DNA of 64,000 nucleotides from Deltaproteobacteria bacterium (GTDB lineage Bacteria; Desulfobacterota; GWC2-55-46): positions 2,079 to 66,078 of the forward strand of contig JACRCC010000046.1 in assembly GCA_016234405.1 (NCBI GenBank). The letters run 5' to 3'. Numbering within the stretch: the first letter of the stretch is position 1; each line of letters opens with the position of its first letter. The translations under genes were made by a program, and so were the position numbers. Below the pieces are notes generated by a model, which saw only the letters and a list, made by a program, of their open reading frames with translations, was not told the origin of the DNA and searched no databases. Positions 18,919 through 28,791 of this stretch are shown here, one piece after another.

Positions 18919-19218
18919 TCACCCATGATGCGCTTGGGCATGCAGTTTCAACCCTAATGCAGTCATTACCTTGAGGATGGTGTCAAAACCCGGACTGCGC
19001 TCGCCGGAGAGCGCCTTGTAAAGGCTTTCGCGGGACAGGCCCGCGTCACGCGCGACCCGCGCCATGCCTTTTGCGCGGGCGATATCGCCCAGCGCCTTTG
19101 CAATGAATGCCGCATCGCCGTCAGCCTCCTCAAAACATGCCTCCAGATAAGCCGCCATTTCCTCCGGGGTTCGGAGGTGTTCCGCAACGTCGTAGCGCGT
19201 GGTAGTTGTCTTGCTCAT
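18919..19218 (-). CDS. higA: HigA-like addiction-module antidote protein (HTH)
   Basis: About 100 aa, HTH region (GMARVARDAGLSRESLYKALS); immediately downstream of a RelE/ParE-fold toxin. Confidence 0.7.
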   Translation of the reverse strand: MSKTTTTRYDVAEHLRTPEEMAAYLEACFEEADGDAAFIAKALGDIARAKGMARVARDAGLSRESLYKALSGERSPGFDTILKVMTALGLKLHAQAHHG

Positions 19219-19227
19219 TATTCGCTC

Positions 19228-19518
19228 CTATAAGTTCCGCGCGAGACGCAGCGCATCCTTGATGTCGGCGGCCTGTGTGCGTTTGTCGCCTCCGGCAAGC
19301 AAAATTATCGCCGTGCGTCCGCGCATCGTAAAATACACCCGGTAACCGGGGACATAATCAATTCGCAGTTCTGAAACGCCCTCCCCAACCGATCTGACAT
19401 CCCCCGGGTTCCCTGCCGCAAGACGCTCGACCCTGACCTGGACGCGCGCCCGCGCATGAATGTCGCGCAGCCCATCAAGCCATTTGGCATAAGTCTCCGT
19501 CTTGCGAATCTCATGCAT
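19228..19518 (-). CDS. higB: HigB-like addiction-module killer protein (RelE/ParE superfamily)
   Basis: 96 aa; toxin-first gene order typical of HigBA. Confidence 0.65.
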   Translation of the reverse strand: MHEIRKTETYAKWLDGLRDIHARARVQVRVERLAAGNPGDVRSVGEGVSELRIDYVPGYRVYFTMRGRTAIILLAGGDKRTQAADIKDALRLARNL

Positions 19519-19597
19519 TATCTATTGTAGCCATACGGCTACAATATGTCAATATCTTTCCATCGGCGACAATTGGAAAAAGGAATATTATTATCAC

Positions 19598-19626
19598 TTG
19601 ACATTCTACGGCATGTAGTATAGGAT
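19598..19626 (+). promoter_or_regulatory. Sigma70-like promoter TTGACA-17-TAGGAT of the blaI-like operon, with CTAC-N5-GTAG dyad in the spacer
   Basis: Hexamers and spacing seen directly; AGGAG ribosome-binding site 10 nt before the ATG at 19648. Confidence 0.5.
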
Positions 19627-19647
19627 TAGTCATCAGGAGCCGCGCCT

Positions 19648-20073
19648 ATGGAAAAAAATCATAAACACAGGGAATCCACCTCATCAACGACAGGCCCCCT
19701 CGAGCAGGACGTGCTCGGAGTCCTCTGGGAAAAAGAGGAAGCGACCGGCAGGGAGGTCTATTCTGATCTCAAGCGTTCGCGGTCAATCGCTCTTACGACC
19801 GTCCTGACGGTATTGGAGAGGCTCGCCAACAAGGGGTTCGTAACAAAGGCCAAGGGTGAAAGCGTATTCATCTACCGCCCCGCTTTCACGAAAGACGGCT
19901 TTGCGCGGGAGGTTTCGCACGGCGTCCTTAAAAACATATTCGGCATATCCGCATCCGGCGCATGCGCGTCGTTCGTGGACGCGCTCGCGGACGTGGACCC
20001 GCAAGAGCTTGAAAGGCTGTCATCCCTCATCGAAAAAAAGAAAAAAGAAATCCTGCGGGACAAGAGGCGATAA
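19648..20073 (+). CDS. blaI: BlaI/MecI/CopY-family winged-helix transcriptional repressor
   Basis: Penicillinase-repressor fold signature (QDVLGVLWEKEEATGREVYSDL, TTVLTVLERLANKGFV); no C-terminal CxCx4CxC metal site. Confidence 0.8.
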   Translation: MEKNHKHRESTSSTTGPLEQDVLGVLWEKEEATGREVYSDLKRSRSIALTTVLTVLERLANKGFVTKAKGESVFIYRPAFTKDGFAREVSHGVLKNIFGISASGACASFVDALADVDPQELERLSSLIEKKKKEILRDKRR

Positions 20074-20077
20074 ACCC

Positions 20078-21007
20078 ATGCCCATCATTACCCTGACGCT
20101 CATCGCCGTTACATCCATTGCGGGCGCAATCTTGTGGGGGTTTTGGGGACTTACCGGTCTCGTGGCGTTTACCGCGTTGGCGCTTCAATTCTGCCACGAC
20201 CTCGTCTCGGCCTGCTTTGAGTATCTTGCGCTTGGAAAACTCACGTTCATCTGGACGGGCGCCGCCCTGGCCTCGTGGGGCGTGATCTACGCTTCCGTCA
20301 GGGGCGTTGCCTCTTATATAAATACGCGCTCCGCATTGACGCGGCTGCCGATAACCGCATCAGGCTCACTTAATATTATCGAGGATGAAACTGCGGCCTG
20401 CGCCTTCACCAGCGGAATTCTAAAACCCAAGATATATCTGACAAGGGGACTCCTCAAAAAACTCAGCTTCAGCGAAAACAAGGCCGTGCTCCTGCACGAG
20501 CTGCACCACAAAAAAAACCGCGACCCCTTGAGCTTCTTTGCCCTCGCCTTCCTCAAGGACGCGCTCTTTTACCTGCCGCTTGCAAAAGACTTTGTAGCCC
20601 TACAACGCGCAAAAAAAGAAAGACAGGCCGACGACTCGGCAATATCCGCGATGAGGGACGATATGAGCCTCGCAAGCGCGCTCGTCAAGGTTGCGGCATC
20701 CGGAAAAAACCTTTGCTTCGCCAATGCCTCTTTTTCAGACGCAGACCCTGCGGCGCGGATAAGGCGCATCTTGAACGGGAAAGAAACCGCCCACAAAAAC
20801 CCGTCCCTTAAAAACGCGGTAACAAGCCTTGTCATGGCCGCGTTCGTTACCTCGGCGCTTATCATACCAACGGCGTCAGGCGCGCAGCTTGGCGCAAAGT
20901 GCATGAAAGACCACTGCGCGCTGCATAAGAGCAGTCCTAACGCGACGGGCACGTCAACGGGGTGCAAAACGCACTGCGACGCCCCTAAATCCGAGCACAA
21001 ACACTAA
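20078..21007 (+). CDS. BlaR1-like M56/M48 membrane zinc metallopeptidase, with a short Cys/His-rich tail in place of a penicillin-binding sensor domain
   Basis: Four TM segments; HELHH zinc motif; C-terminal CMKDHCALHKSSPNATGTSTGCKTHCDAPKSEHKH; start 4 nt after the blaI stop. Confidence 0.7.
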   Translation: MPIITLTLIAVTSIAGAILWGFWGLTGLVAFTALALQFCHDLVSACFEYLALGKLTFIWTGAALASWGVIYASVRGVASYINTRSALTRLPITASGSLNIIEDETAACAFTSGILKPKIYLTRGLLKKLSFSENKAVLLHELHHKKNRDPLSFFALAFLKDALFYLPLAKDFVALQRAKKERQADDSAISAMRDDMSLASALVKVAASGKNLCFANASFSDADPAARIRRILNGKETAHKNPSLKNAVTSLVMAAFVTSALIIPTASGAQLGAKCMKDHCALHKSSPNATGTSTGCKTHCDAPKSEHKH

Positions 21008-21052
21008 GACAAAATTTTTTCATAACTAATTCTACGCCTCGTAGAATTAGTT

Positions 21053-22360
21053 ATGGACAACAATTTGAAATCGGGATATATTCGGGATATGCTGAACCGC
21101 AAAAAAAAAATAACGATTTTGCTCTTGATTACGGTCTTGACCGCGTCAATCTTATCCGCTCGATATGTGGAGGCGGCAGAGACAATTGTTTTAAAAGAAC
21201 TGATTGCCGAGGCGAGAGAGAATAACGCGCAGCTCAAATCCCTGCGCGAGCTTGTAAAGGCAAAGGATGCCGGGGCGCGCGTCGAGGGCTTTTATGACGA
21301 CCCCACCCTCAAGGTCGAGATGGAAGACCTTGCCAAAAAATCCCCTCAAAACACGGCGCCGGGCAACGCCATGATGACTCGATACACGCTCAGCCAGATG
21401 CTGCCGTTTCCCGGTAAACTCTCCCTGAAAGAACGCATCGCGGGCAAGGAGACAATAGCTGCAAGGGCGCTCTACGCGGAAAAAGAACTTGAGGTGCTCG
21501 CAAATTTGAAAGAGGCCTTCTACGGCTACGCCTATCTTACCGAGGCCGTAAAGCTGACCGAAGAGATAAAGGGCATCCTCGCCTACATGTCGAAGATAGC
21601 GGAGAGCAGATACGCAACGGGTCTGGCCCCGCAGCAGGACGTAATAAAGGTCCAGCTCGAAAACACCATGCTCGCAAACGAACTCATAATGCTGTCCTCC
21701 GAAAAAGAGATGGCCGCGGCGCGGATAAAGCCGCTTATCGGGAAGGGTCAAGATTACCCTCTTCCCGCGGCTTCAGACCTGCCGAAAAACAAGATTGAGT
21801 TCGAGACGGAAGTCCTCATCGAGGCGGCCATACGGAAAAACCCCGGCATATTGATGCTCGAGTCTGAAGCCGCCGCAGGCGACCTCGGAGTTGAGCTTGC
21901 CAAAAAGGATTATTACCCGGACTTCATGCTCGGCTTGGCCCCCATCCAGAAAGACGGCAGGTTCGAGACCTACGACGTGATGTTCCAGATGACCATCCCA
22001 ATATGGTGGGGCAAAAACAGCGGCAAGGTAACGGCGGCATCCGCGGGCGCGTCTTCGGCAAGGGCGCGGCTTTTGGCGGAAAGGCTTGCCAAGTCGTTTG
22101 AGGTTAAAGAGGCCGCCCTGCAGGCCAAGGCCGCCTCGAACATAATGTCTCTTTTCAAGACCGGGATAATACCGCAGGCCGAGATGGCCTTCGAATCCGC
22201 CATGAAAAACTACCAATCCGGCAAGGTGGACTTTCTGACGCTCCTCGAGTCCGGAAGGGAGATAAAAAAAACGCGCCTCAATTACTTGAAGACCGTGCTC
22301 GAATACCGTAAAAAACTCGCATCCCTTGAGAGGGTCTCGGCGACGGAATTAGGAGAATGA
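21053..22360 (+). CDS. cusC: Outer-membrane efflux protein CusC/CzcC (TolC family)
   Basis: Signal peptide; two OEP repeats; first gene of a three-gene RND efflux operon. Confidence 0.8.
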   Translation: MDNNLKSGYIRDMLNRKKKITILLLITVLTASILSARYVEAAETIVLKELIAEARENNAQLKSLRELVKAKDAGARVEGFYDDPTLKVEMEDLAKKSPQNTAPGNAMMTRYTLSQMLPFPGKLSLKERIAGKETIAARALYAEKELEVLANLKEAFYGYAYLTEAVKLTEEIKGILAYMSKIAESRYATGLAPQQDVIKVQLENTMLANELIMLSSEKEMAAARIKPLIGKGQDYPLPAASDLPKNKIEFETEVLIEAAIRKNPGILMLESEAAAGDLGVELAKKDYYPDFMLGLAPIQKDGRFETYDVMFQMTIPIWWGKNSGKVTAASAGASSARARLLAERLAKSFEVKEAALQAKAASNIMSLFKTGIIPQAEMAFESAMKNYQSGKVDFLTLLESGREIKKTRLNYLKTVLEYRKKLASLERVSATELGE

Positions 22361-23754
22361 ATGGAATGAAAAAGACATCGTCGGCGATAATCGCGCTTGC
22401 CGTAGGTTTTGCGGTAGGCGGGGCATCCATCTGGCTGTTTTCAAAACCGAATGTCCCGTCCGCCCCCGGCCAAACGAAAGAGGCCGTTGTCAAAGAACGC
22501 AAGATTCAATTCTACCGCAATCCGATGAACCCTGAGGCCACGTCCCCCACCCCCATGAAAGACAGCATGGGCATGCCGTACGTCCCGGTCTATGAGGACG
22601 AGGGGCAGACAAAAGACTCGCCCGGTGTAGTGAGGATAAGCCCTGAAAAGGCGCAGCGCATCGGCGTCAAATCCGAACAGGCCGCAAGACGCGAGTTGAA
22701 GCGCGTAATAAGAACGGTCGGAAGGGTCGAGCCGGTGGAGAACTACGTCCACATAATAAACTCCAAGATATCCGGATGGGTTGAAAAACTCTTTGTCAAC
22801 CGCACTGACCAGATGGTCGCGTCCGGAGAAAAACTCCTCGACCTCTACAGCCCGGACCTCGTATCCGCGCAGGAGGAATATCTCCTCGCGTGGAGGTCTT
22901 TTGAGCAGAGCAAAACGAGCACGCACCCGGAGGTAAAAGAGGGCGCAAAAAGCCTCCTTAACGCGGCAAGCCAAAGACTCAAATACTGGGACATATCCGA
23001 AGACCAGATTGAAAGGCTCAAAACAAGCGGCAAGATAACCCGAACCCTGACGATAAAGACCCCGGCACACGGCAGCGTTACCGAAAAGATGGTCGTGGAA
23101 GGGCAAAAGATAGAGGCCGGAGAGACGCTCTTTAAAATAATTGACCACTCCACGGTCTGGGTATACGGCGAGATATACGAGCACGAACTGCCCTACGTAA
23201 AGGTCGGAGAGGCCGCTTCACTTTATCCCTCATACGCCGCACAGGACATATACAGGGGTCATATCGAACACGTCTACGGCCACCTCGGCTCGATTAGATA
23301 CACCCCCGAAGGCTCGACTGAAATCAGGACTGCCAAGATTAGGTTCGAGCTTCCCAACAAAACGCACAAACTCAAACTCGGCATGTACATGAACATAGAG
23401 ATACCCGTAACCGTGGCGGTCAACGCGGTCTCGGTTCCGGATTCGGCGCTGATAGACACGGGCGCGAGAAGGCTCGTCATAATAGACAGGCGCGACGGGT
23501 CGTTCGAGCCGAGGGACGTTGAGGCCGGGGCAAGGGCGGACGGCTACTACGAGATAAAAAGCGGCGTCCATGCCGGCGAGTGGGTGGTCTCGGCCGCGAA
23601 CTTTCTTATAGATTCCGAAAGTAACCTCAAGGCCGCGATAGGCGGCCTCGGAGGACACGAAGGGCACGGCAAGGCCAAAAAACAAGAACCCATTGCGGCA
23701 GAAAAAGCTGACAAAAAAGAAGACGCGGCGCCGTCCGAACACAAAGGACACTGA
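22357..23754 (+). CDS. cusB: Cu(I)/Ag(I) efflux membrane-fusion protein CusB
   Basis: N-terminal FYRNPMNPEATSPTPMKDSMGMPYVP parallels the E. coli CusB Met21/36/38 metal site (YDPMYP...SPFMDMDLVP); HlyD-like domains; His-rich C-tail. Confidence 0.85.
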   Translation: MNGMKKTSSAIIALAVGFAVGGASIWLFSKPNVPSAPGQTKEAVVKERKIQFYRNPMNPEATSPTPMKDSMGMPYVPVYEDEGQTKDSPGVVRISPEKAQRIGVKSEQAARRELKRVIRTVGRVEPVENYVHIINSKISGWVEKLFVNRTDQMVASGEKLLDLYSPDLVSAQEEYLLAWRSFEQSKTSTHPEVKEGAKSLLNAASQRLKYWDISEDQIERLKTSGKITRTLTIKTPAHGSVTEKMVVEGQKIEAGETLFKIIDHSTVWVYGEIYEHELPYVKVGEAASLYPSYAAQDIYRGHIEHVYGHLGSIRYTPEGSTEIRTAKIRFELPNKTHKLKLGMYMNIEIPVTVAVNAVSVPDSALIDTGARRLVIIDRRDGSFEPRDVEAGARADGYYEIKSGVHAGEWVVSAANFLIDSESNLKAAIGGLGGHEGHGKAKKQEPIAAEKADKKEDAAPSEHKGH

Positions 23755-23762
23755 ACGAATTA

Positions 23763-23833
23763 GGATGTAGGGGGTGGGAGGTGGTAAAGACTTTACTACC
23801 CCCTACCTCCCACTCCCCGCATCCCATCTTAAA
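23763..23833. repeat. Repeat family R8 copy forming an imperfect hairpin in the cusB-cusA spacer
   Basis: GTAGGGGGTGGGAGGTGGTAAAG / CTTTACTACCCCCTACCTCCCAC; same motif as at 1-50. Confidence 0.65.
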
Positions 23834-23836
23834 CCC

Positions 23837-26800
23837 ATGCTCAATAAAATAATCGAACTTTCCGTAAAAAACAGATTCGTCATCATCCTTGCCGCCGTCT
23901 TCCTTGCGGGCTGGGGCGTCTGGACGCTCTACAGGACGCCCGTTGACGCCATCCCGGATCTATCCGACGCGCAGGTGATAATCTACACCGACTACCCCGG
24001 CCAAGCCCCTCAGGTGGTCGAAGACCAAATCACCTATCCCCTCACCACAGCCATGCTCGCGGTTCCAAAGGCCAAGGTGGTGCGCGGGTACTCGTTCTTC
24101 GGCGTATCCTTCATCTATATAATCTTCGAGGACGGCACCGACATTTACTGGGCCAGAAGCCGCGTGCTCGAATACCTGAATTTCGCCTCCGGCAAACTCC
24201 CGCGCGGCGTTACGCCGTCTTTGGGGCCTGACGCCACGGGCGTGGGCTGGGTCTACGAGTATACGGTCGAGGGCGCTGGATACAGCCTCGCGGAATTAAG
24301 GGGCATTCAGGACTGGTACGTGAGGTATCAGCTTACGAAGGTGCCCGGGGTTTCGGAGGTCGCATCCATAGGCGGGTTCGTGAAACAATATCAGGTGAAC
24401 CTCGACCCCAATAAGCTCATCACTTACGGCATATCCATAAGAGACGTAGTCAAATCCATCGAGATGAGCAACAACGACGTGGGCGGCAGGGTCGTGGAGA
24501 TGGCCGAGAGGGAATACATGGTGCGCGGGCTTGGCTACATAAAGGGCATGCCTGACATCGAGGACATCGTCTTAAAGGTTGACATGACCGGCACGCCCGT
24601 GAAGGTGAAAGACGTCGGGAGGGTGGAGATCGGGCCTGACGAAAGGCGCGGCGTAACGGAATTGAACGGCGAAGGCGAGGCCGTTGCCGGGATAGTCGTG
24701 ATGAGGTTCGGCGAAAACGCGCTAAACGTGATTGACGGCGTAAAGGAAAAGATAAAAGACTTGAGCGCCGGTCTGCCGCCGGGCGTCAAGATTCGCGCGG
24801 TCTATGACAGGAGCCATCTCATAGAAAGGGCCATTGACACGCTCAAGGCGAAACTCGTCGAGGAATTCATCGTAGTTTCCATCGTCTGCATAATCTTTCT
24901 CCTGCATTTCAGGAGCGCCCTCGTTGCCATCCTCATGCTTCCGCTTGCGATACTCATCTCCTTTATCGTGATGTTTGAAATGAAAATAAACGCCAACATC
25001 ATGAGCCTCGGAGGCATCGCCATAGCCATAGGCGCGATGATAGACGGCGCAATCGTGATGGTCGAAAACGGCCACAAAAAGATAGAAAAAGAGGCCCCGG
25101 GGGCCAACCGCTGGGCCACGATTACGGAGGCGGCAAAAGAGGTCGGCCCGGCGCTCTTTTTTTCGCTCCTCATAATAACCGTGTCGTTCCTGCCCATCTT
25201 CACGCTCGAGGCTCAGGAGGGCCGGCTCTTCAAACCCCTTGCCTACACCAAGACGTTTGCCATGGCCTCGGCGGCCATACTCTCCATAACGCTCGTGCCG
25301 GTGCTCATGGGTTTTTTCCTCCGCGGACGAATACCTAAGGAAGAGAGAAACCCTTTGACGCGGGGTCTCATCCGCGTCTACAGACCCGCGATACACGCGG
25401 TCTTGAAGTTCAAAAAGACCACCCTCATCATAGCGGCCTCAGCGCTCATCTCCATCGTTTTTCCGCTCTCCAGACTCGGAAGCGAATTCATGCCTTCGCT
25501 TGACGAAGGGACATTAATGTTCATGCCCGTAACCCTGCCCGGCGTATCGGTGACAAAGGCCGCGGAAATACTCCAGACCCAAGACCGGATAATAAAGGGC
25601 TTCCCGGAGGTCGCCACCGTATTCGGCAAGGCAGGCAGGGCGCTCACAGCCACGGACCCCGCGCCTTTTGAGATGTTCGAGACTATCATAAACCTGAAAC
25701 ACCAAGATACGTGGCGCCCGGGCATGACGCAGGAGAGGCTCGTCGCGGAGATGGATAAAGCGTTGAAGATGCCCGGGGTCACCAACGCATGGACCATGCC
25801 GATTAAGGCCCGCATTGACATGCTCTCCACCGGCATAAGGACTCCGGTGGGGATAAAGGTCTTCGGCAAAGACCTTGAAACGTTGGAGAAGACCGCGCTC
25901 GAGGTCGAGGCCGCGGTAAAAAAGGTGGACGGCGCCGCGAGCGCATACGCGGAGAGGATAGTGGGCGGATATTACCTCGACATAAAGATAAAACGCAATG
26001 ACGCGGCAAGATACGGGCTTAAGGTCGAGGACATCCAGCAGGTCATAATGACCGCCGTCGGAGGCGAAAACGTAACGACGACGGTCGAGGGGCTCGAGCG
26101 CTACCCGGTAAACGTCAGATACATGCGGGAGCTAAGAGACGACGTGAATAAGATAGGCCGGGTCCTCGTGCCCACCATGATGGGGACGCACGTCGCGCTT
26201 TCGCAGGTCGCGGACATAGAAATAAAAAAAGGGCCGCCGGGGATTCGGACGGAAAACGCGCTTCTGACGACGTGGATATTCGTTGACGTGCGCGGCAGAG
26301 ACATCGGCAGTTTTGTGGCCGAGGCAAAAGAGGCCGTGGCGCGGGATGTGCGCTTCCCAACGGGTTATTACGCGGCGTGGAGCGGCCAGTATGAATACAT
26401 GCAGAGGGCTTATGCAAAGCTCCTGTATATCGTGCCGCTTACCCTCGCCATAATATTTCTTCTGCTTTATCTCAACTTCGGCTCCGTTGCCGAATGTCTC
26501 ATGATACTCCTTGCCATCCCTTTTTCCATGATAGGGGCAGCGTGGATACTGTATCTGCTCGGCTACAACATCAGCATCGGCGTTGCGGTGGGTTTTATCG
26601 CGTTGGCGGGGCTTGACGCAGAGACGGGCATCGTCATGCTCATATACCTCACGCACGCTTATGATGACAGAAAAAAGGCGGGCCGTCTCAACACAAAGGC
26701 AGACATCTACGAGGCCGTGTTGGACGGCACGGTGCTGCGCGTCAGACCCAAGCTCATGACCGTAGCCGCCATCATAGCCGGGTTGCTCCCCATCATGTGG

Positions 26801-26938
26801 AGCACGGGAGCCGGCGCGGACGTGATGAAGCGGATAGCCGCGCCCATGGTCGGGGGCATGTTCACGTCGGCGCTCTTGGAACTCCTCGTCCTGCCCGTCG
26901 TATTTACCCTGTGGAAGGGGCGCGGGATGAAGGAATAA
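23837..26938 (+). CDS. cusA: Heavy-metal efflux RND permease CusA
   Basis: 12-TM RND architecture, 1034 aa; start set at MLNKIIELSVKNRF typical of HME-RND. Confidence 0.9.
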   Translation: MLNKIIELSVKNRFVIILAAVFLAGWGVWTLYRTPVDAIPDLSDAQVIIYTDYPGQAPQVVEDQITYPLTTAMLAVPKAKVVRGYSFFGVSFIYIIFEDGTDIYWARSRVLEYLNFASGKLPRGVTPSLGPDATGVGWVYEYTVEGAGYSLAELRGIQDWYVRYQLTKVPGVSEVASIGGFVKQYQVNLDPNKLITYGISIRDVVKSIEMSNNDVGGRVVEMAEREYMVRGLGYIKGMPDIEDIVLKVDMTGTPVKVKDVGRVEIGPDERRGVTELNGEGEAVAGIVVMRFGENALNVIDGVKEKIKDLSAGLPPGVKIRAVYDRSHLIERAIDTLKAKLVEEFIVVSIVCIIFLLHFRSALVAILMLPLAILISFIVMFEMKINANIMSLGGIAIAIGAMIDGAIVMVENGHKKIEKEAPGANRWATITEAAKEVGPALFFSLLIITVSFLPIFTLEAQEGRLFKPLAYTKTFAMASAAILSITLVPVLMGFFLRGRIPKEERNPLTRGLIRVYRPAIHAVLKFKKTTLIIAASALISIVFPLSRLGSEFMPSLDEGTLMFMPVTLPGVSVTKAAEILQTQDRIIKGFPEVATVFGKAGRALTATDPAPFEMFETIINLKHQDTWRPGMTQERLVAEMDKALKMPGVTNAWTMPIKARIDMLSTGIRTPVGIKVFGKDLETLEKTALEVEAAVKKVDGAASAYAERIVGGYYLDIKIKRNDAARYGLKVEDIQQVIMTAVGGENVTTTVEGLERYPVNVRYMRELRDDVNKIGRVLVPTMMGTHVALSQVADIEIKKGPPGIRTENALLTTWIFVDVRGRDIGSFVAEAKEAVARDVRFPTGYYAAWSGQYEYMQRAYAKLLYIVPLTLAIIFLLLYLNFGSVAECLMILLAIPFSMIGAAWILYLLGYNISIGVAVGFIALAGLDAETGIVMLIYLTHAYDDRKKAGRLNTKADIYEAVLDGTVLRVRPKLMTVAAIIAGLLPIMWSTGAGADVMKRIAAPMVGGMFTSALLELLVLPVVFTLWKGRGMKE

Positions 26939-27017
26939 TAAACACGTTAGAGGAAACTCCGGTATACTTAGCTTTATGGCGCTTCAAAAATAAACCGCGA
27001 ATAAAGGAGGCTACAGG

Positions 27018-27548
27018 ATGAAAAAGACGCTCGTTGCAGTTGCGCTTGTCTCGGCCATGCTCATGGCAACGCCGGCAACATCGGAGGAAAAAGACCACGT
27101 CGCCCCCGGAGGCCCGGGCAAGATGGAAGACGGACAGATGAAAATGGAAAAGCACAAGATGATGCAGGCCATGATGCGCGACATGTTGGGCATGATAAAG
27201 GACACCATGACCATCGTGCGCGACGTTGAGCACAAGCCCAATGACGCGCAGAAGAAAAACCTCGACGCGATGCTAAAACGGCTCGACGAGGTGATAAAAC
27301 GCCATGACGAGGCCGCGTTGGCCAAGTCTGAGATGAGCGAAAAACACAAACAGATGCACGGCATGATGCAAGACGCCCTCGGAATGCTCAGAGACACGAT
27401 GGCCATAGTAAAAGATATGAATCACGCGCCCGGGGCCGAGCAGAAGAAAAAACTCGACGCTATGGTTATAAAGATGGGCGAGATAATGAAACAGCACGAG
27501 GGCATGATGGAGATGGGCCCAGGCATGATGAAGGGACACGACATGTAG
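27018..27548 (+). CDS. Secreted Met/His-rich protein with two ~48-aa tandem repeats (candidate periplasmic Cu/Ag-binding protein)
   Basis: Signal peptide; about 20% Met; repeat 1 MMRDMLGMIKDTMTIVRDVEHKP..., repeat 2 MMQDALGMLRDTMAIVKDMNHAP... Confidence 0.6.
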   Translation: MKKTLVAVALVSAMLMATPATSEEKDHVAPGGPGKMEDGQMKMEKHKMMQAMMRDMLGMIKDTMTIVRDVEHKPNDAQKKNLDAMLKRLDEVIKRHDEAALAKSEMSEKHKQMHGMMQDALGMLRDTMAIVKDMNHAPGAEQKKKLDAMVIKMGEIMKQHEGMMEMGPGMMKGHDM

Positions 27549-27584
27549 TGTGCGCCGTCGTAATGCAGCGTTGAGAAGCCCGTT

Positions 27585-27661
27585 GCGCCCAGCGCCGCTT
27601 TCCGTCTCAAAGGTTTGTCGCAAACGCGAACTTTCGCGCCGGAAAGTGGCGCTGGGCGCGC
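27585..27661. repeat. Repeat family R3 copy downstream of the Met-rich gene (may also act as a terminator)
   Basis: GCGCCCAGCGCCGCTTTCC ... GGAAAGTGGCGCTGGGCGCGC. Confidence 0.75.
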
Positions 27662-27670
27662 ACAAATGTC

Positions 27671-27698
27671 TTGACAGTCAGCAGCCCTATATGATAAT
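27671..27698 (+). promoter_or_regulatory. Sigma70-like promoter TTGACA-16-GATAAT for the atp operon
   Basis: Hexamers seen directly, about 100 nt upstream of the atpF' start. Confidence 0.45.
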
Positions 27699-27807
27699 GA
27701 TTCTCTGTTTATACCCAAGCAAAAAACCAAACAAAAACCAGCGGCGCAAAAGGCGCATACGATAACCCCGCGTCTTAAGGCCGAGTCCCCGCAAAGGCTG
27801 CCCCTAA

Positions 27808-28791
27808 ATGCTTGACCTTGACATCACGATACTCTGGCAGATAATCGCATTCATCATCCTCCTGCCCATCCTCAACAGACTCCTCTACAAACCATTTCAA
27901 AAGGTCTTGAAAGAACGCGAGGAGAAGACGGAAGGCGCGATGAAGTTGGCCGCGAACGCCGAAAAAGAGATAGCTGACGGCATTGCCGCCTATGAAAAGA
28001 GGCTCAAAGAAGCCGCGGTAAAAGGGCAAGAGGAGCGCAATCGCTTGAGGGCAGAGGCTGCCCTGCAGGAAAAAGAGATGCTTGACGCCGCGCGCGCAAG
28101 GGCCTCCTCCGAATTAGCCTCCATGAAGGCCGAAATCGAAAAGAGCAAGACCTCCGCCCTTGCCAAACTCAAAGAAGAGTCAAAGACGATTTCAACGGTC
28201 ATTGCCGAGAAGATGCTCGACAGGAGGCTCGTTGCGGCGCTCCTGTTTTTTATCCTGCCTCTCATTCCTGTGGTTGCGCTCGCCTCAAGCGGAGGCGGCG
28301 AAGGTGGTCATGAGGGCGGCGGCAACGACATGCTCTGGAAGGTCATAAACTTCGCCATCCTCGTTGCGGGCATCGTGATAGTATGGTTCAAAGTCATCCG
28401 AAAAATGCTCGACAACAGGACTCAAGATATAATAAAGGCGCTTGAAGCGGCAAAAAAGGCCAAAGAGTCCGCAGACAAGTTGGCCGCCGAGTACGGGGAA
28501 AAACTCGCGCTCCTTGAAGAAAGCGTCGCGGACGTGCAAAGGAAACTCGCCATCGAAGGCGAGGCGGAAAAAAAGCGGATGATCGCCGAGTCTGAGAAAG
28601 CGGCGGAAAAACTGATAGCTCAGGCGCGTGGCGCGGCTGAACAGGAAGTAAAAAAAGCCAAGTATGAAATAAAAAAAGAGGCCGCCGAACTCGCCGCCCG
28701 CATGGCCGAAGAGATATTGAAAAAAGAACTAACGGGCGCGGATCAAGAAAGACTCGTTAAGACCTACATAGAAAAACTGAGGCTGCACTAA
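27808..28791 (+). CDS. atpF: ATP synthase Fo subunit b' fused in-frame to subunit b, as a single 327-aa ORF
   Basis: Two N-terminal-type TM helices (aa 6-26 and 143-190), each followed by a charged coiled-coil; no stop between them; internal ATG at 28213. Confidence 0.7.
   Translation: MLDLDITILWQIIAFIILLPILNRLLYKPFQKVLKEREEKTEGAMKLAANAEKEIADGIAAYEKRLKEAAVKGQEERNRLRAEAALQEKEMLDAARARASSELASMKAEIEKSKTSALAKLKEESKTISTVIAEKMLDRRLVAALLFFILPLIPVVALASSGGGEGGHEGGGNDMLWKVINFAILVAGIVIVWFKVIRKMLDNRTQDIIKALEAAKKAKESADKLAAEYGEKLALLEESVADVQRKLAIEGEAEKKRMIAESEKAAEKLIAQARGAAEQEVKKAKYEIKKEAAELAARMAEEILKKELTGADQERLVKTYIEKLRLH

Follow-up and report, generated by a model that had tools for sequence, protein, structure and literature searches.

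How is a copper/silver efflux pump switched on when no two-component system is encoded near it? Copper- and silver-exporting pumps of the resistance-nodulation-division (RND) type are the textbook case of two-component (CusRS) control, and this question is raised by a gene cluster of an uncultured groundwater bacterium, known from a metagenome-assembled genome (MAG) labelled Deltaproteobacteria bacterium. We analyzed a 64-kb stretch of one of its contigs, hereafter the window (GenBank assembly GCA_016234405.1, contig JACRCC010000046.1, positions 2,079 to 66,078, numbered here from 1). Six genes lie on the plus strand within 19598-27548: blaI-like, blaR-like, cusC-like, cusB, cusA, and a gene for a Met-rich secreted protein. 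A BLAST search of the window, made with hand-entered queries and with a database positive control run, found no open reading frame (ORF) resembling CusR, CueR, CsoR or a kinase. An earlier interpretation of the same DNA (the sequence-only reading) had assigned these products to the same families, which domain and family matches bear out; it had counted seven genes, where ORF reading gives six. With moderate confidence, we interpret the cluster as a two-promoter Cu/Ag efflux regulon controlled by regulated proteolysis of the BlaI-like repressor.

One operator in two promoters probably links the repressor-protease pair to the pump

The blaI-blaR promoter P1 (19598-19626, plus strand) consists of a -35 box TTGACA (19598-19603), a 17-bp spacer and a -10 box TAGGAT (19621-19626); it can be read directly, as the sequence-only reading had done, and was recovered by a promoter scan (10/12). 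Its spacer is filled exactly by operator O1, TTCTACggcatGTAGTA (19604-19620), which has one mismatch to TTCTAC-N5-GTAGAA. The dyad CTAC-N5-GTAG described earlier is present here, but it is only the core of this longer palindrome, and a second copy had been overlooked. That copy, operator O2 (TTCTACgcctcGTAGAA, 21030-21046), is an exact palindrome between blaR and cusC and overlaps the -10 box of a candidate promoter of the efflux genes, P2 (21019-21047, plus strand; TTCATA-17-TAGAAT with AAAATTTTTT just before it; 9/12 in the scan). With up to two mismatches allowed, O1 and O2 are the only two matches to the motif in the window.

Related loci were collected by a one-genome-per-species GTDB scan with the protease, which returned 14 loci, all in Deltaproteobacteria/Thermodesulfobacteriota MAGs and mostly from groundwater; a metagenome scan with the protease family alignment added almost nothing further (L036 is the same contig as L003). 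Across 317 kb of 17 related loci the motif occurs 29 times at the same threshold, against a mean of 7.8 in shuffled sequence, and 27 of the 29 matches lie at O1 or O2 positions. The region upstream of blaI has the same architecture in 13 loci, namely TTGACA, then TTCTAC-N5-GT(C/A)GAA filling the 17-bp spacer, then TATAAT, and O1 was found in 13/13 blaI promoters examined, mostly with one mismatch. A copy of O2 lies 20-50 nt past the blaR stop, ahead of the next gene, in the window and in every relative with pump genes. It is perfect in 12/13 cus-bearing loci and degenerate or lost in L012 and L030, where blaI-blaR is followed directly by a single-domain Met-rich gene without a pump. In relatives, a conserved AAAATTTTTT and a TTGnnn box precede O2, whose right arm makes a TAGAAT-like -10 box. 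Even a distant locus, L031 (protease 28% identical), carries TTCTAC-N4-GTAGAA at both positions within clear TTGACC...TAGAAT promoters, and in L056, also a distant pair, O1 is present with the N5 spacer.

Since the arms are conserved while the 5-nt spacer varies freely across loci, the motif is best understood as a DNA site recognized by a protein rather than as an RNA hairpin. We rejected O2 as an RNA hairpin or terminator: its arms lack covariation, no U-tract follows, and the identical sequence also occurs at O1. A terminator scan found no convincing plus-strand terminator inside the cluster. Because O2 is perfect and O1 has one mismatch, the pump would be repressed more tightly than the sensor/repressor pair.

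Probably, cusCBA has its own promoter. Here one feature of the window counts against our reading: the -35 box of P2 is weak (TTCATA, where relatives have the better TTGACT or TTGACC in the same register), and the main effect of O2 could for this reason be to block read-through from P1. The sequence-only reading had counted transcription of the pair apart from cusCBA against a common circuit. Such separate transcription is indeed probable, yet it would leave the circuit intact because the second promoter carries the same operator. In the window only, O2 is nested in a longer palindrome (21016-21060; 21-nt arms, 90% complementary) that covers the first ATG of the cusC ORF (21053). This suggests that read-through RNA would form a long A/U-rich hairpin there and that the real cusC start is ATG 21089, which is also the likely start because the signal peptide begins at M13 of the ORF.

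Gene order tells the same story as the operators. By tblastn with the six window proteins, the order blaI-blaR-cusC-cusB-cusA is present in 10 of the 14 species loci and in L028, hence in at least 11, which answers the earlier suggestion that BlaR1-like genes be surveyed for co-occurrence with heavy-metal efflux (HME) RND operons. The Met-rich gene follows cusA in most relatives, and one related locus ends at a contig edge. L028, whose protease is 69% identical, has exactly the layout of the window, flanks included, while in L031 a distant blaI-blaR pair is followed by an outer-membrane factor (OMF), a CusB-like adaptor that bears a heavy-metal-binding domain (HMBD), and a pump of the CusA type. 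Across loci in which CusA shows 53-80% identity, that of the protease is only 33-40%, and the blaR-cus linkage therefore appears to be old.

These data bear on the view that the pair regulates itself or something else, that its adjacency to cusCBA is incidental, and that the pump is driven by a regulator elsewhere, such as CusRS or CueR. The genome is incomplete (the contig is 67 kb long) and such a regulator could be encoded outside it, a point that speaks against our interpretation. However, only 45-80 nt separate blaR from cusC, and with O2 among them no room is left for another site; its loss tracks the absence of cus genes; and synteny is kept at 33-40% protease identity. We consider incidental adjacency very improbable. 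Control of the pump genes by the repressor through O1 and O2 is, on this comparative evidence, highly likely, and the regulatory link to cusCBA proposed by the sequence-only reading gains from both the synteny in at least 11 loci and the perfect operator directly upstream of cusC.

Two variations on the locus were also observed. Eight loci (L001, L003, L004, L006, L007, L011, L013 and L014; e.g. L003:10939-11313) have an extra gene between O2 and cusC for a secreted protein of 124-156 aa with weak, sub-threshold YtkA-like/DUF4426 matches; this gene is absent from the window and L028. In L005 (10001-10990) and L010 (2485-3390), an orphan tail-bearing protease lies by tmk/holB, the same neighborhood as in the window, with no blaI, operator or pump, and is followed by a strong promoter and a response-regulator gene. 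These orphans may be module remnants or re-used proteases.

A repressor with a presumed cleavage site and no conserved metal ligands

The first gene (19648-20073, plus strand) encodes a 141-aa winged-helix repressor of the BlaI/MecI/CopY family. PF03965 (Penicillinase_R) matches it with E=8.9e-25 (87.7 bits versus a cutoff of 22.6) over profile positions 2-114 of 115, and it aligns to the structures of BlaI, MecI and M. tuberculosis BlaI. In the alignment to S. aureus BlaI (1sd4), the cleavage bond between N101 and F102 falls on the bond between S and F of a putative scissile motif A-S/F-V-D (slashes mark cuts; 19966-19980, from residue 107, plus strand), with Phe at P1'. The motif ASFVD is invariant in 17 repressor orthologues.

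Could the repressor itself sense the metal as CopY does, with the protease merely clearing it or serving an unrelated role? Its best NCBIfam match is indeed the CopY model TIGR02698 (CopY_TcrY), yet the score of 47.9 bits is far under the cutoff of 121.95. The CopY-type motif CxCx4-5CxC is absent (there is no C-terminal CxC), and no Cys or His is conserved across the 17 orthologues, where the single Cys can be A, S, V or L instead. This agrees with the earlier remark that the repressor lacks the CopY metal site. Moreover, the protease gene is kept with blaI in every blaI-bearing locus. As the orthologues share no Cys or His, direct CopY-like metal sensing is unlikely, and we give this explanation as a whole hardly any weight.

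A BlaR1-like membrane protease without a penicillin sensor

The second gene (20078-21007, plus strand) starts 4 nt after the blaI stop and encodes a 309-aa membrane protease of the gluzincin type (M48/M56). PF01435 (M48) matches at 42.1 bits against a cutoff of 20.3. Speaking against the assignment, PF05569 (M56) scores 29.5 bits, slightly under its 31-bit cutoff; the profile check proposed with the sequence-only reading thus came out in part, with Penicillinase_R and M48 above cutoff and Peptidase_M56 marginally below. NCBI annotates the protein as an M56 family metallopeptidase. The blaR1 model NF000326 gives 34.3 bits against a cutoff of 400 and matches only at positions 157-330 of 585, in the protease core. 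The penicillin-binding (SxxK) sensor domain is absent from the protein, which ends 40 residues past its last transmembrane (TM) segment. The family profile aligns to S. aureus BlaR1 residues 159-322, and an AlphaFold2 (AF2) model (predicted local distance difference test, pLDDT, 71 overall and ~85 in the core) finds as best Foldseek matches the cryo-EM structures of S. aureus BlaR1 (8exq/8exp), followed by other M48 proteases. A BlaR1-like protease lacking the penicillin sensor, as first proposed from the letters, is what these matches describe.

The catalytic motifs H140-E-L-H-H144 and E181-R-Q-A-D185 (20495-20632, plus strand) are invariant in the family alignment and correspond to H201EXXH and E242XXXD of BlaR1. 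Structural work on BlaR1 (2023; PMC9834060) placed autocleavage at S283/F284, assigned R294 a role at the catalytic site where it pairs with D246, and described an autoinhibitory loop that is displaced by the repressor. In the hidden Markov model (HMM) alignment to BlaR1, a putative autocleavage loop of the window protease (N-A-S218/F219-S-D with R227-I-R-R230; 20723-20767, plus strand) takes the same place: S283/F284 stands opposite A-S/F (residues 217-219; A-S followed by F, I or L in the family), and R293-R294 stands opposite R229-R230, with the conserved R230 aligned with R294. We also considered R229-R230 as the autocleavage site, following older literature, and dropped it given the BlaR1 cut at S283/F284 (PMC9834060). 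The protease loop and its presumed substrate, the repressor, have A-S-F in common, which retention of the BlaR1 mechanism would predict. When the window is compared with L028, no gene of the cluster has evolved faster than that of the protease, with 69% identity versus 77-91% for the other five (repressor 91%, CusA 89%), and its Cys/His positions are fixed. Judged by this homology, derepression by BlaR-type cleavage is likely, if less so than the control of the pump through the two operators.

Two cysteine-bearing segments as a candidate metal sensor

If the protease is regulated, what might it sense? Two segments outside the protease domain stand out. The first is the loop before TM3 (residues 39-54; 20192-20239, plus strand), the counterpart of the BlaR1 loop EL1, with a conserved pair C39-x6-C46 (of 23 family members, 22 have C39 and all have C46). 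The second is the 40-aa Cys/His tail (residues 270-309; 20885-21004, plus strand) with C275, C280, H283, C296, H299, C300 and H307, a candidate periplasmic metal sensor; residues 275-309 read CMKDHCALHKSSPNATGTSTGCKTHCDAPKSEHKH. C275, C280, C296, C300, H283 and H299 each occur in 22-23 of 23 family members, and H307 occurs in 20/23, so that the tail noticed by the sequence-only reading is both present and conserved among 23 relatives. It follows the last TM segment (residues 247-269; 20816-20884, plus strand), located by 19-residue Kyte-Doolittle hydropathy windows (those starting at 244-251 exceed 1.4) and by an AF2 helix at 244-272. Because its repressor is cytoplasmic, the protease domain should be cytoplasmic as well, and because of this, the pre-TM3 loop and the post-TM4 tail should both be extracytoplasmic, whatever the number of N-terminal helices. 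On the basis of hydropathy and homology to BlaR1 and PetP, a copper-responsive protease discussed below, loop and tail are thus predicted to be on the opposite side of the membrane from the protease domain, in agreement with the earlier proposal of an extracytoplasmic tail.

Several points weigh against a sensor built from these segments. AF2 modelled the N-terminal helices and the tail poorly (pLDDT <50) and gave a single unrealistic helix for residues 2-89. Lys and Arg together number 6 in the tail versus 5 on the cytoplasmic side of TM4, and since the tail is as Lys-rich as that side, the orientation does not follow from the positive-inside rule. The six periplasmic Cys could equally well form three structural disulfides, and the tail may not be the sensor at all since PetP senses copper without such a tail.

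Two alternatives concern what is sensed, and where. In one, the circuit is the same but the Cys-rich loop and tail respond to periplasmic thiol or redox stress (copper-catalyzed disulfides, sulfide, oxidants), and oxidation state rather than metal occupancy switches the protease. Six conserved Cys in two extracytoplasmic segments would suffice for three disulfides, and the short Cys tails of distant sensor-less relatives vary (C-x4-C-x4-C and others) and have no conserved His. Yet the window-type tail also holds three conserved His, and every informative neighborhood is metal-related rather than redox-related, and the pump of the cluster is specifically CusA-type; we judge redox sensing unlikely. 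In the other, the Cys of tail and loop are purely structural, and copper is sensed at the protease active site, by transmembrane residues or via the repressor. PetP, in which two Met of the TM2-TM3 loop have been suggested as the sensor, fits this view, as does the low confidence of the modelled tail, whereas the retention of four Cys and three His across 33-40%-identical proteins argues for a ligand-like function, at a position matching the sensor/EL1 pair that drives BlaR1 signalling. Purely structural Cys seem to us about as improbable as redox sensing. For the proposal that the Cys/His tail together with the loop forms the Cu/Ag sensor, the conservation pattern leaves us close to evenly balanced, with slight doubt.

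Relatives beyond the synteny set widen the picture. A profile search of 1.84 billion representatives retrieved about 60-80 clusters with the window-type tail and a larger set of sensor-less relatives of ~300-350 aa (P0086-P0175), in which the loop Cys take the form C-x6-C or CCGxxxxxC and the Cys-rich tails are short and variable. In one subgroup of this second tier, a CCGxxxxxC loop goes together with a C-x4-C-x4-C tail, again six Cys. Several others lay on contigs of 1-2.5 kb, too short to show their context; metal-associated neighbors occur in 4/4 second-tier loci with enough flank (L031, L053, L055 and L056): an OMF, HMBD-adaptor and CusA-type RND pump; an HMBD protein; a PCYCGC protein; and an OMF with a YHS protein nearby. 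We tentatively suggest that the loop Cys pair and the tail make up a minimal, ~55-residue periplasmic Cu(I)/Ag(I) receptor that replaces the penicillin-binding domain, and that the window belongs to a wider uncharacterized clade of sensor-less BlaR-like proteolytic metal sensors, serving, in uncultured bacteria, HME-RND pumps as well as other metal genes and sharing a TTCTAC-N4/5-GTAGAA operator; this wider proposal is the more speculative of the two.

The junction between membrane and tail has a further feature. The end of the last TM segment (20867-20899, residues ~264-274) reads IIPTASGA/QLG, and relatives have PLxA followed by S, A or G, a pattern similar to that of a signal-peptidase I site. 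Signal peptidase reportedly cuts BlaR1 just past its last TM segment, at Gly331, and by analogy the tail might be shed after a signal-peptidase-like cut. Attachment of heme by the tail was dismissed, as it contains no CxxCH-type motif.

A Cu/Ag-type pump followed by a Met-rich secreted protein

The efflux genes begin with the CusC-like OMF (ORF 21053-22360, plus strand; PF02321 E=2.4e-32), followed by a CusB-like periplasmic adaptor (22357-23754, plus strand; PF16576 E=2.6e-61). The N-terminal Met triad of E. coli CusB (M49/M64/M66) is matched in the adaptor, as the sequence-only reading had noted of its Cu(I)/Ag(I)-type N-terminus. The CusB model NF007303 scores 155.6 against a cutoff of 390, and the adaptor is for this reason better called a relative than a member of the E. 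coli CusB subfamily. The HME-RND pump itself (23837-26938, plus strand) scores 1259.6 bits with TIGR00914 (cutoff 701.45). Its ORF opens at GTG 23774, and ATG 23837 is the likelier start because it aligns with the start of E. coli CusA. Compared with E. coli CusA the pump reaches 1254 bits, and with the zinc pump ZneA 572; it matches all three methionines that form the Cu(I)/Ag(I) site of CusA (M573/M623/M672), and carries in TM4 the motif AIGAMIDGA, resembling AVGAMVDAA of CusA. By these residues, it is a pump of the Cu/Ag type. Between cusB and the likely start of cusA, a gap of 82 nt (23755-23836) holds a G-rich/C-rich imperfect inverted repeat, GGGAGGTGGTAAAG..CTTTACTACCCCCTACCTCCC, which may form an mRNA stem-loop within the operon.

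No cusF-like gene was found among the ORFs of 21053-27548. The last gene (27018-27548, plus strand) encodes a 176-aa secreted Met/His-rich protein with tandem repeats, as had been described from the letters. This helical protein has a signal peptide, two ~54-aa repeats and four predicted helices, and of its 154 mature residues 27 are Met and 9 are His. Profile libraries gave no family match for it, and its AF2 model had no meaningful fold match in the PDB. In relatives the ~54-aa Met-rich domain, located in the loci by tblastn, is single-copy; in the window it is duplicated.

Flanks of the cluster

Upstream of the cluster lie housekeeping genes and toxin-antitoxin pairs (holB, vapBC, tmk and a Gp49/HI1420 pair), and downstream lies the ATP synthase operon. 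The Gp49-like toxin (19228-19518) and the HI1420-type HTH antitoxin (18919-19218) are on the minus strand, divergent from blaI, and their promoter (TTGACA 19552...TACAAT 19524, minus strand) overlaps a perfect palindrome, TATTGTAGCC-N4-GGCTACAATA (19523-19546), which is presumably the antitoxin operator and separate from the BlaI operator. We did not retain this palindrome as part of the BlaI system, given that it sits in the divergent toxin-antitoxin promoter and is missing from most relatives. After the Met-rich gene, a long inverted repeat (27585-27659; 31-nt arms, 84% complementary, no T-tract) probably marks the cluster end, and just beyond it stands the atp-operon promoter (TTGACA 27671-16-GATAAT). 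A search of 19000-28000 against Rfam found no RNA family.

A proposed circuit and its relation to known systems

Taken together, we propose the following circuit. In its first step, which has strong comparative support, a BlaI-like dimer would bind O1 and O2 and hold both promoters off, the pump more tightly. In the second, by homology to BlaR1, the cytoplasmic active site of the membrane gluzincin would be occupied by its own A-S/F loop; once activated, the protease would cut the repressor at A-S/F-V-D in the dimerization domain, so that operator binding is lost and both promoters are derepressed. As a hypothesis for the third step, periplasmic Cu(I)/Ag(I) would be bound by the tail (4 Cys, 3 His) and the loop Cys pair, which would take the places that the sensor domain and its partner EL1 have in BlaR1; by clamping the loop against the tail or releasing it, the metal would move TM3/TM4 and open the protease. 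Finally, judging from their sequences, the induced CusCBA would export Cu(I)/Ag(I), and the Met-rich helical protein could act as a periplasmic metal buffer or chaperone replacing CusF.

The closest known system is PetR/PetP of Synechocystis sp. PCC 6803 (Garcia-Canas et al., PNAS 2021; bioRxiv 10.1101/2020.07.31.226407; commentary in PMC7896320), in which degradation of PetR needs both PetP and copper, in living cells as well as in extracts. PetP is an M48/M56 protease with predicted TM helices at 4-21, 28-50, 65-87 and 256-278; as its copper sensor, the authors suggest two Met in the TM2-TM3 loop (bioRxiv 10.1101/2020.07.31.226407). Both systems pair a BlaI/CopY-family regulator lacking CopY ligands with a ~300-aa M48/M56 protease, encoded next in the same operon, that has four predicted TM segments and no penicillin-binding domain, and both use a dyad operator with a 5-nt spacer (GAC-N5-GTC for PetR, TAC-N5-GTA in the window). 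They differ in their targets, which are petE, petJ and two small genes for PetRP and cusCBA in the window. By its published description PetP also ends at TM4 and has a Met pair in the loop, whereas the window protease continues into a 40-aa tail with 4 Cys and 3 His and has C-x6-C and no Met in its loop (39-54). The 'undescribed regulatory logic' claimed by the sequence-only reading is overstated, as PetR/PetP is already a copper-dependent pair of a BlaI and a sensor-less BlaR. Relative to PetR/PetP, the novelty would lie in the target, an HME-RND efflux operon, and in the candidate sensor element. According to a 2023 review, PetRP drives no copper-homeostasis response, and the role of BlaR homologues in heterotrophs is still to be elucidated. 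In the open-access literature, our searches pairing BlaI/BlaR with efflux, RND or heavy metal brought up resistome surveys and PetRP only, and no link to an HME-RND operon.

The BlaR1/BlaI and MecR1/MecI systems of S. aureus share with the window the motifs HEXXH and EXXXD, the Arg aligned with R294, the S/F autocleavage loop and a repressor of the same Pfam family with Phe at P1', as well as dyad operators that overlap promoters, two per system. In BlaR1, whose topology has been determined, interaction of EL1 with the sensor domain transmits the signal via helix alpha-3. The differences concern this sensing side and the target: BlaR1 and MecR1 carry an acyl-serine (SxxK) sensor of ~250 aa that the window protease lacks, EL1 has ~40 residues versus 16 in the window loop before TM3, and the S. 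aureus systems regulate beta-lactamase or PBP2a whereas the window pair adjoins a metal pump. With CusRS-cusCFBA of E. coli, the proposed circuit would have in common that a sensor facing the periplasm turns on a Cu(I)/Ag(I) pump of the CusCBA type. The window, however, has no histidine kinase, response regulator or MerR-type protein of the CusRS or CueR kind, would use repressor proteolysis instead of phosphotransfer, and has a Met-rich helical protein where cusCFBA has CusF. CopY/CopR of Firmicutes belong to the same winged-helix family and recognize a related half-site (TACA-N2-TGTA; PMC7253601). CopY differs in binding Cu(I) via a C-terminal Cys motif, in controlling P-type ATPases and in having no partner protease gene.

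Significance

If the circuit operates as proposed, a repressor-protease switch would add a mechanistically different and irreversible mode of control to metal homeostasis, and cus-type efflux would have a third route of control besides two-component systems and MerR-type activators. The compact set of operator, repressor and protease could serve as a metal-inducible switch, and the operator motif enables regulon prediction in related MAGs. The finding also bears on how PetP-type proteases sense copper, since it offers a few invariant candidate ligands placed at BlaR1 sensor/EL1 positions, a set small enough for straightforward mutagenesis and peptide metal-binding designs. For the family as a whole, the single known copper-responsive BlaI/BlaR pair would be extended from cyanobacterial photosynthesis to metal resistance in other phyla.

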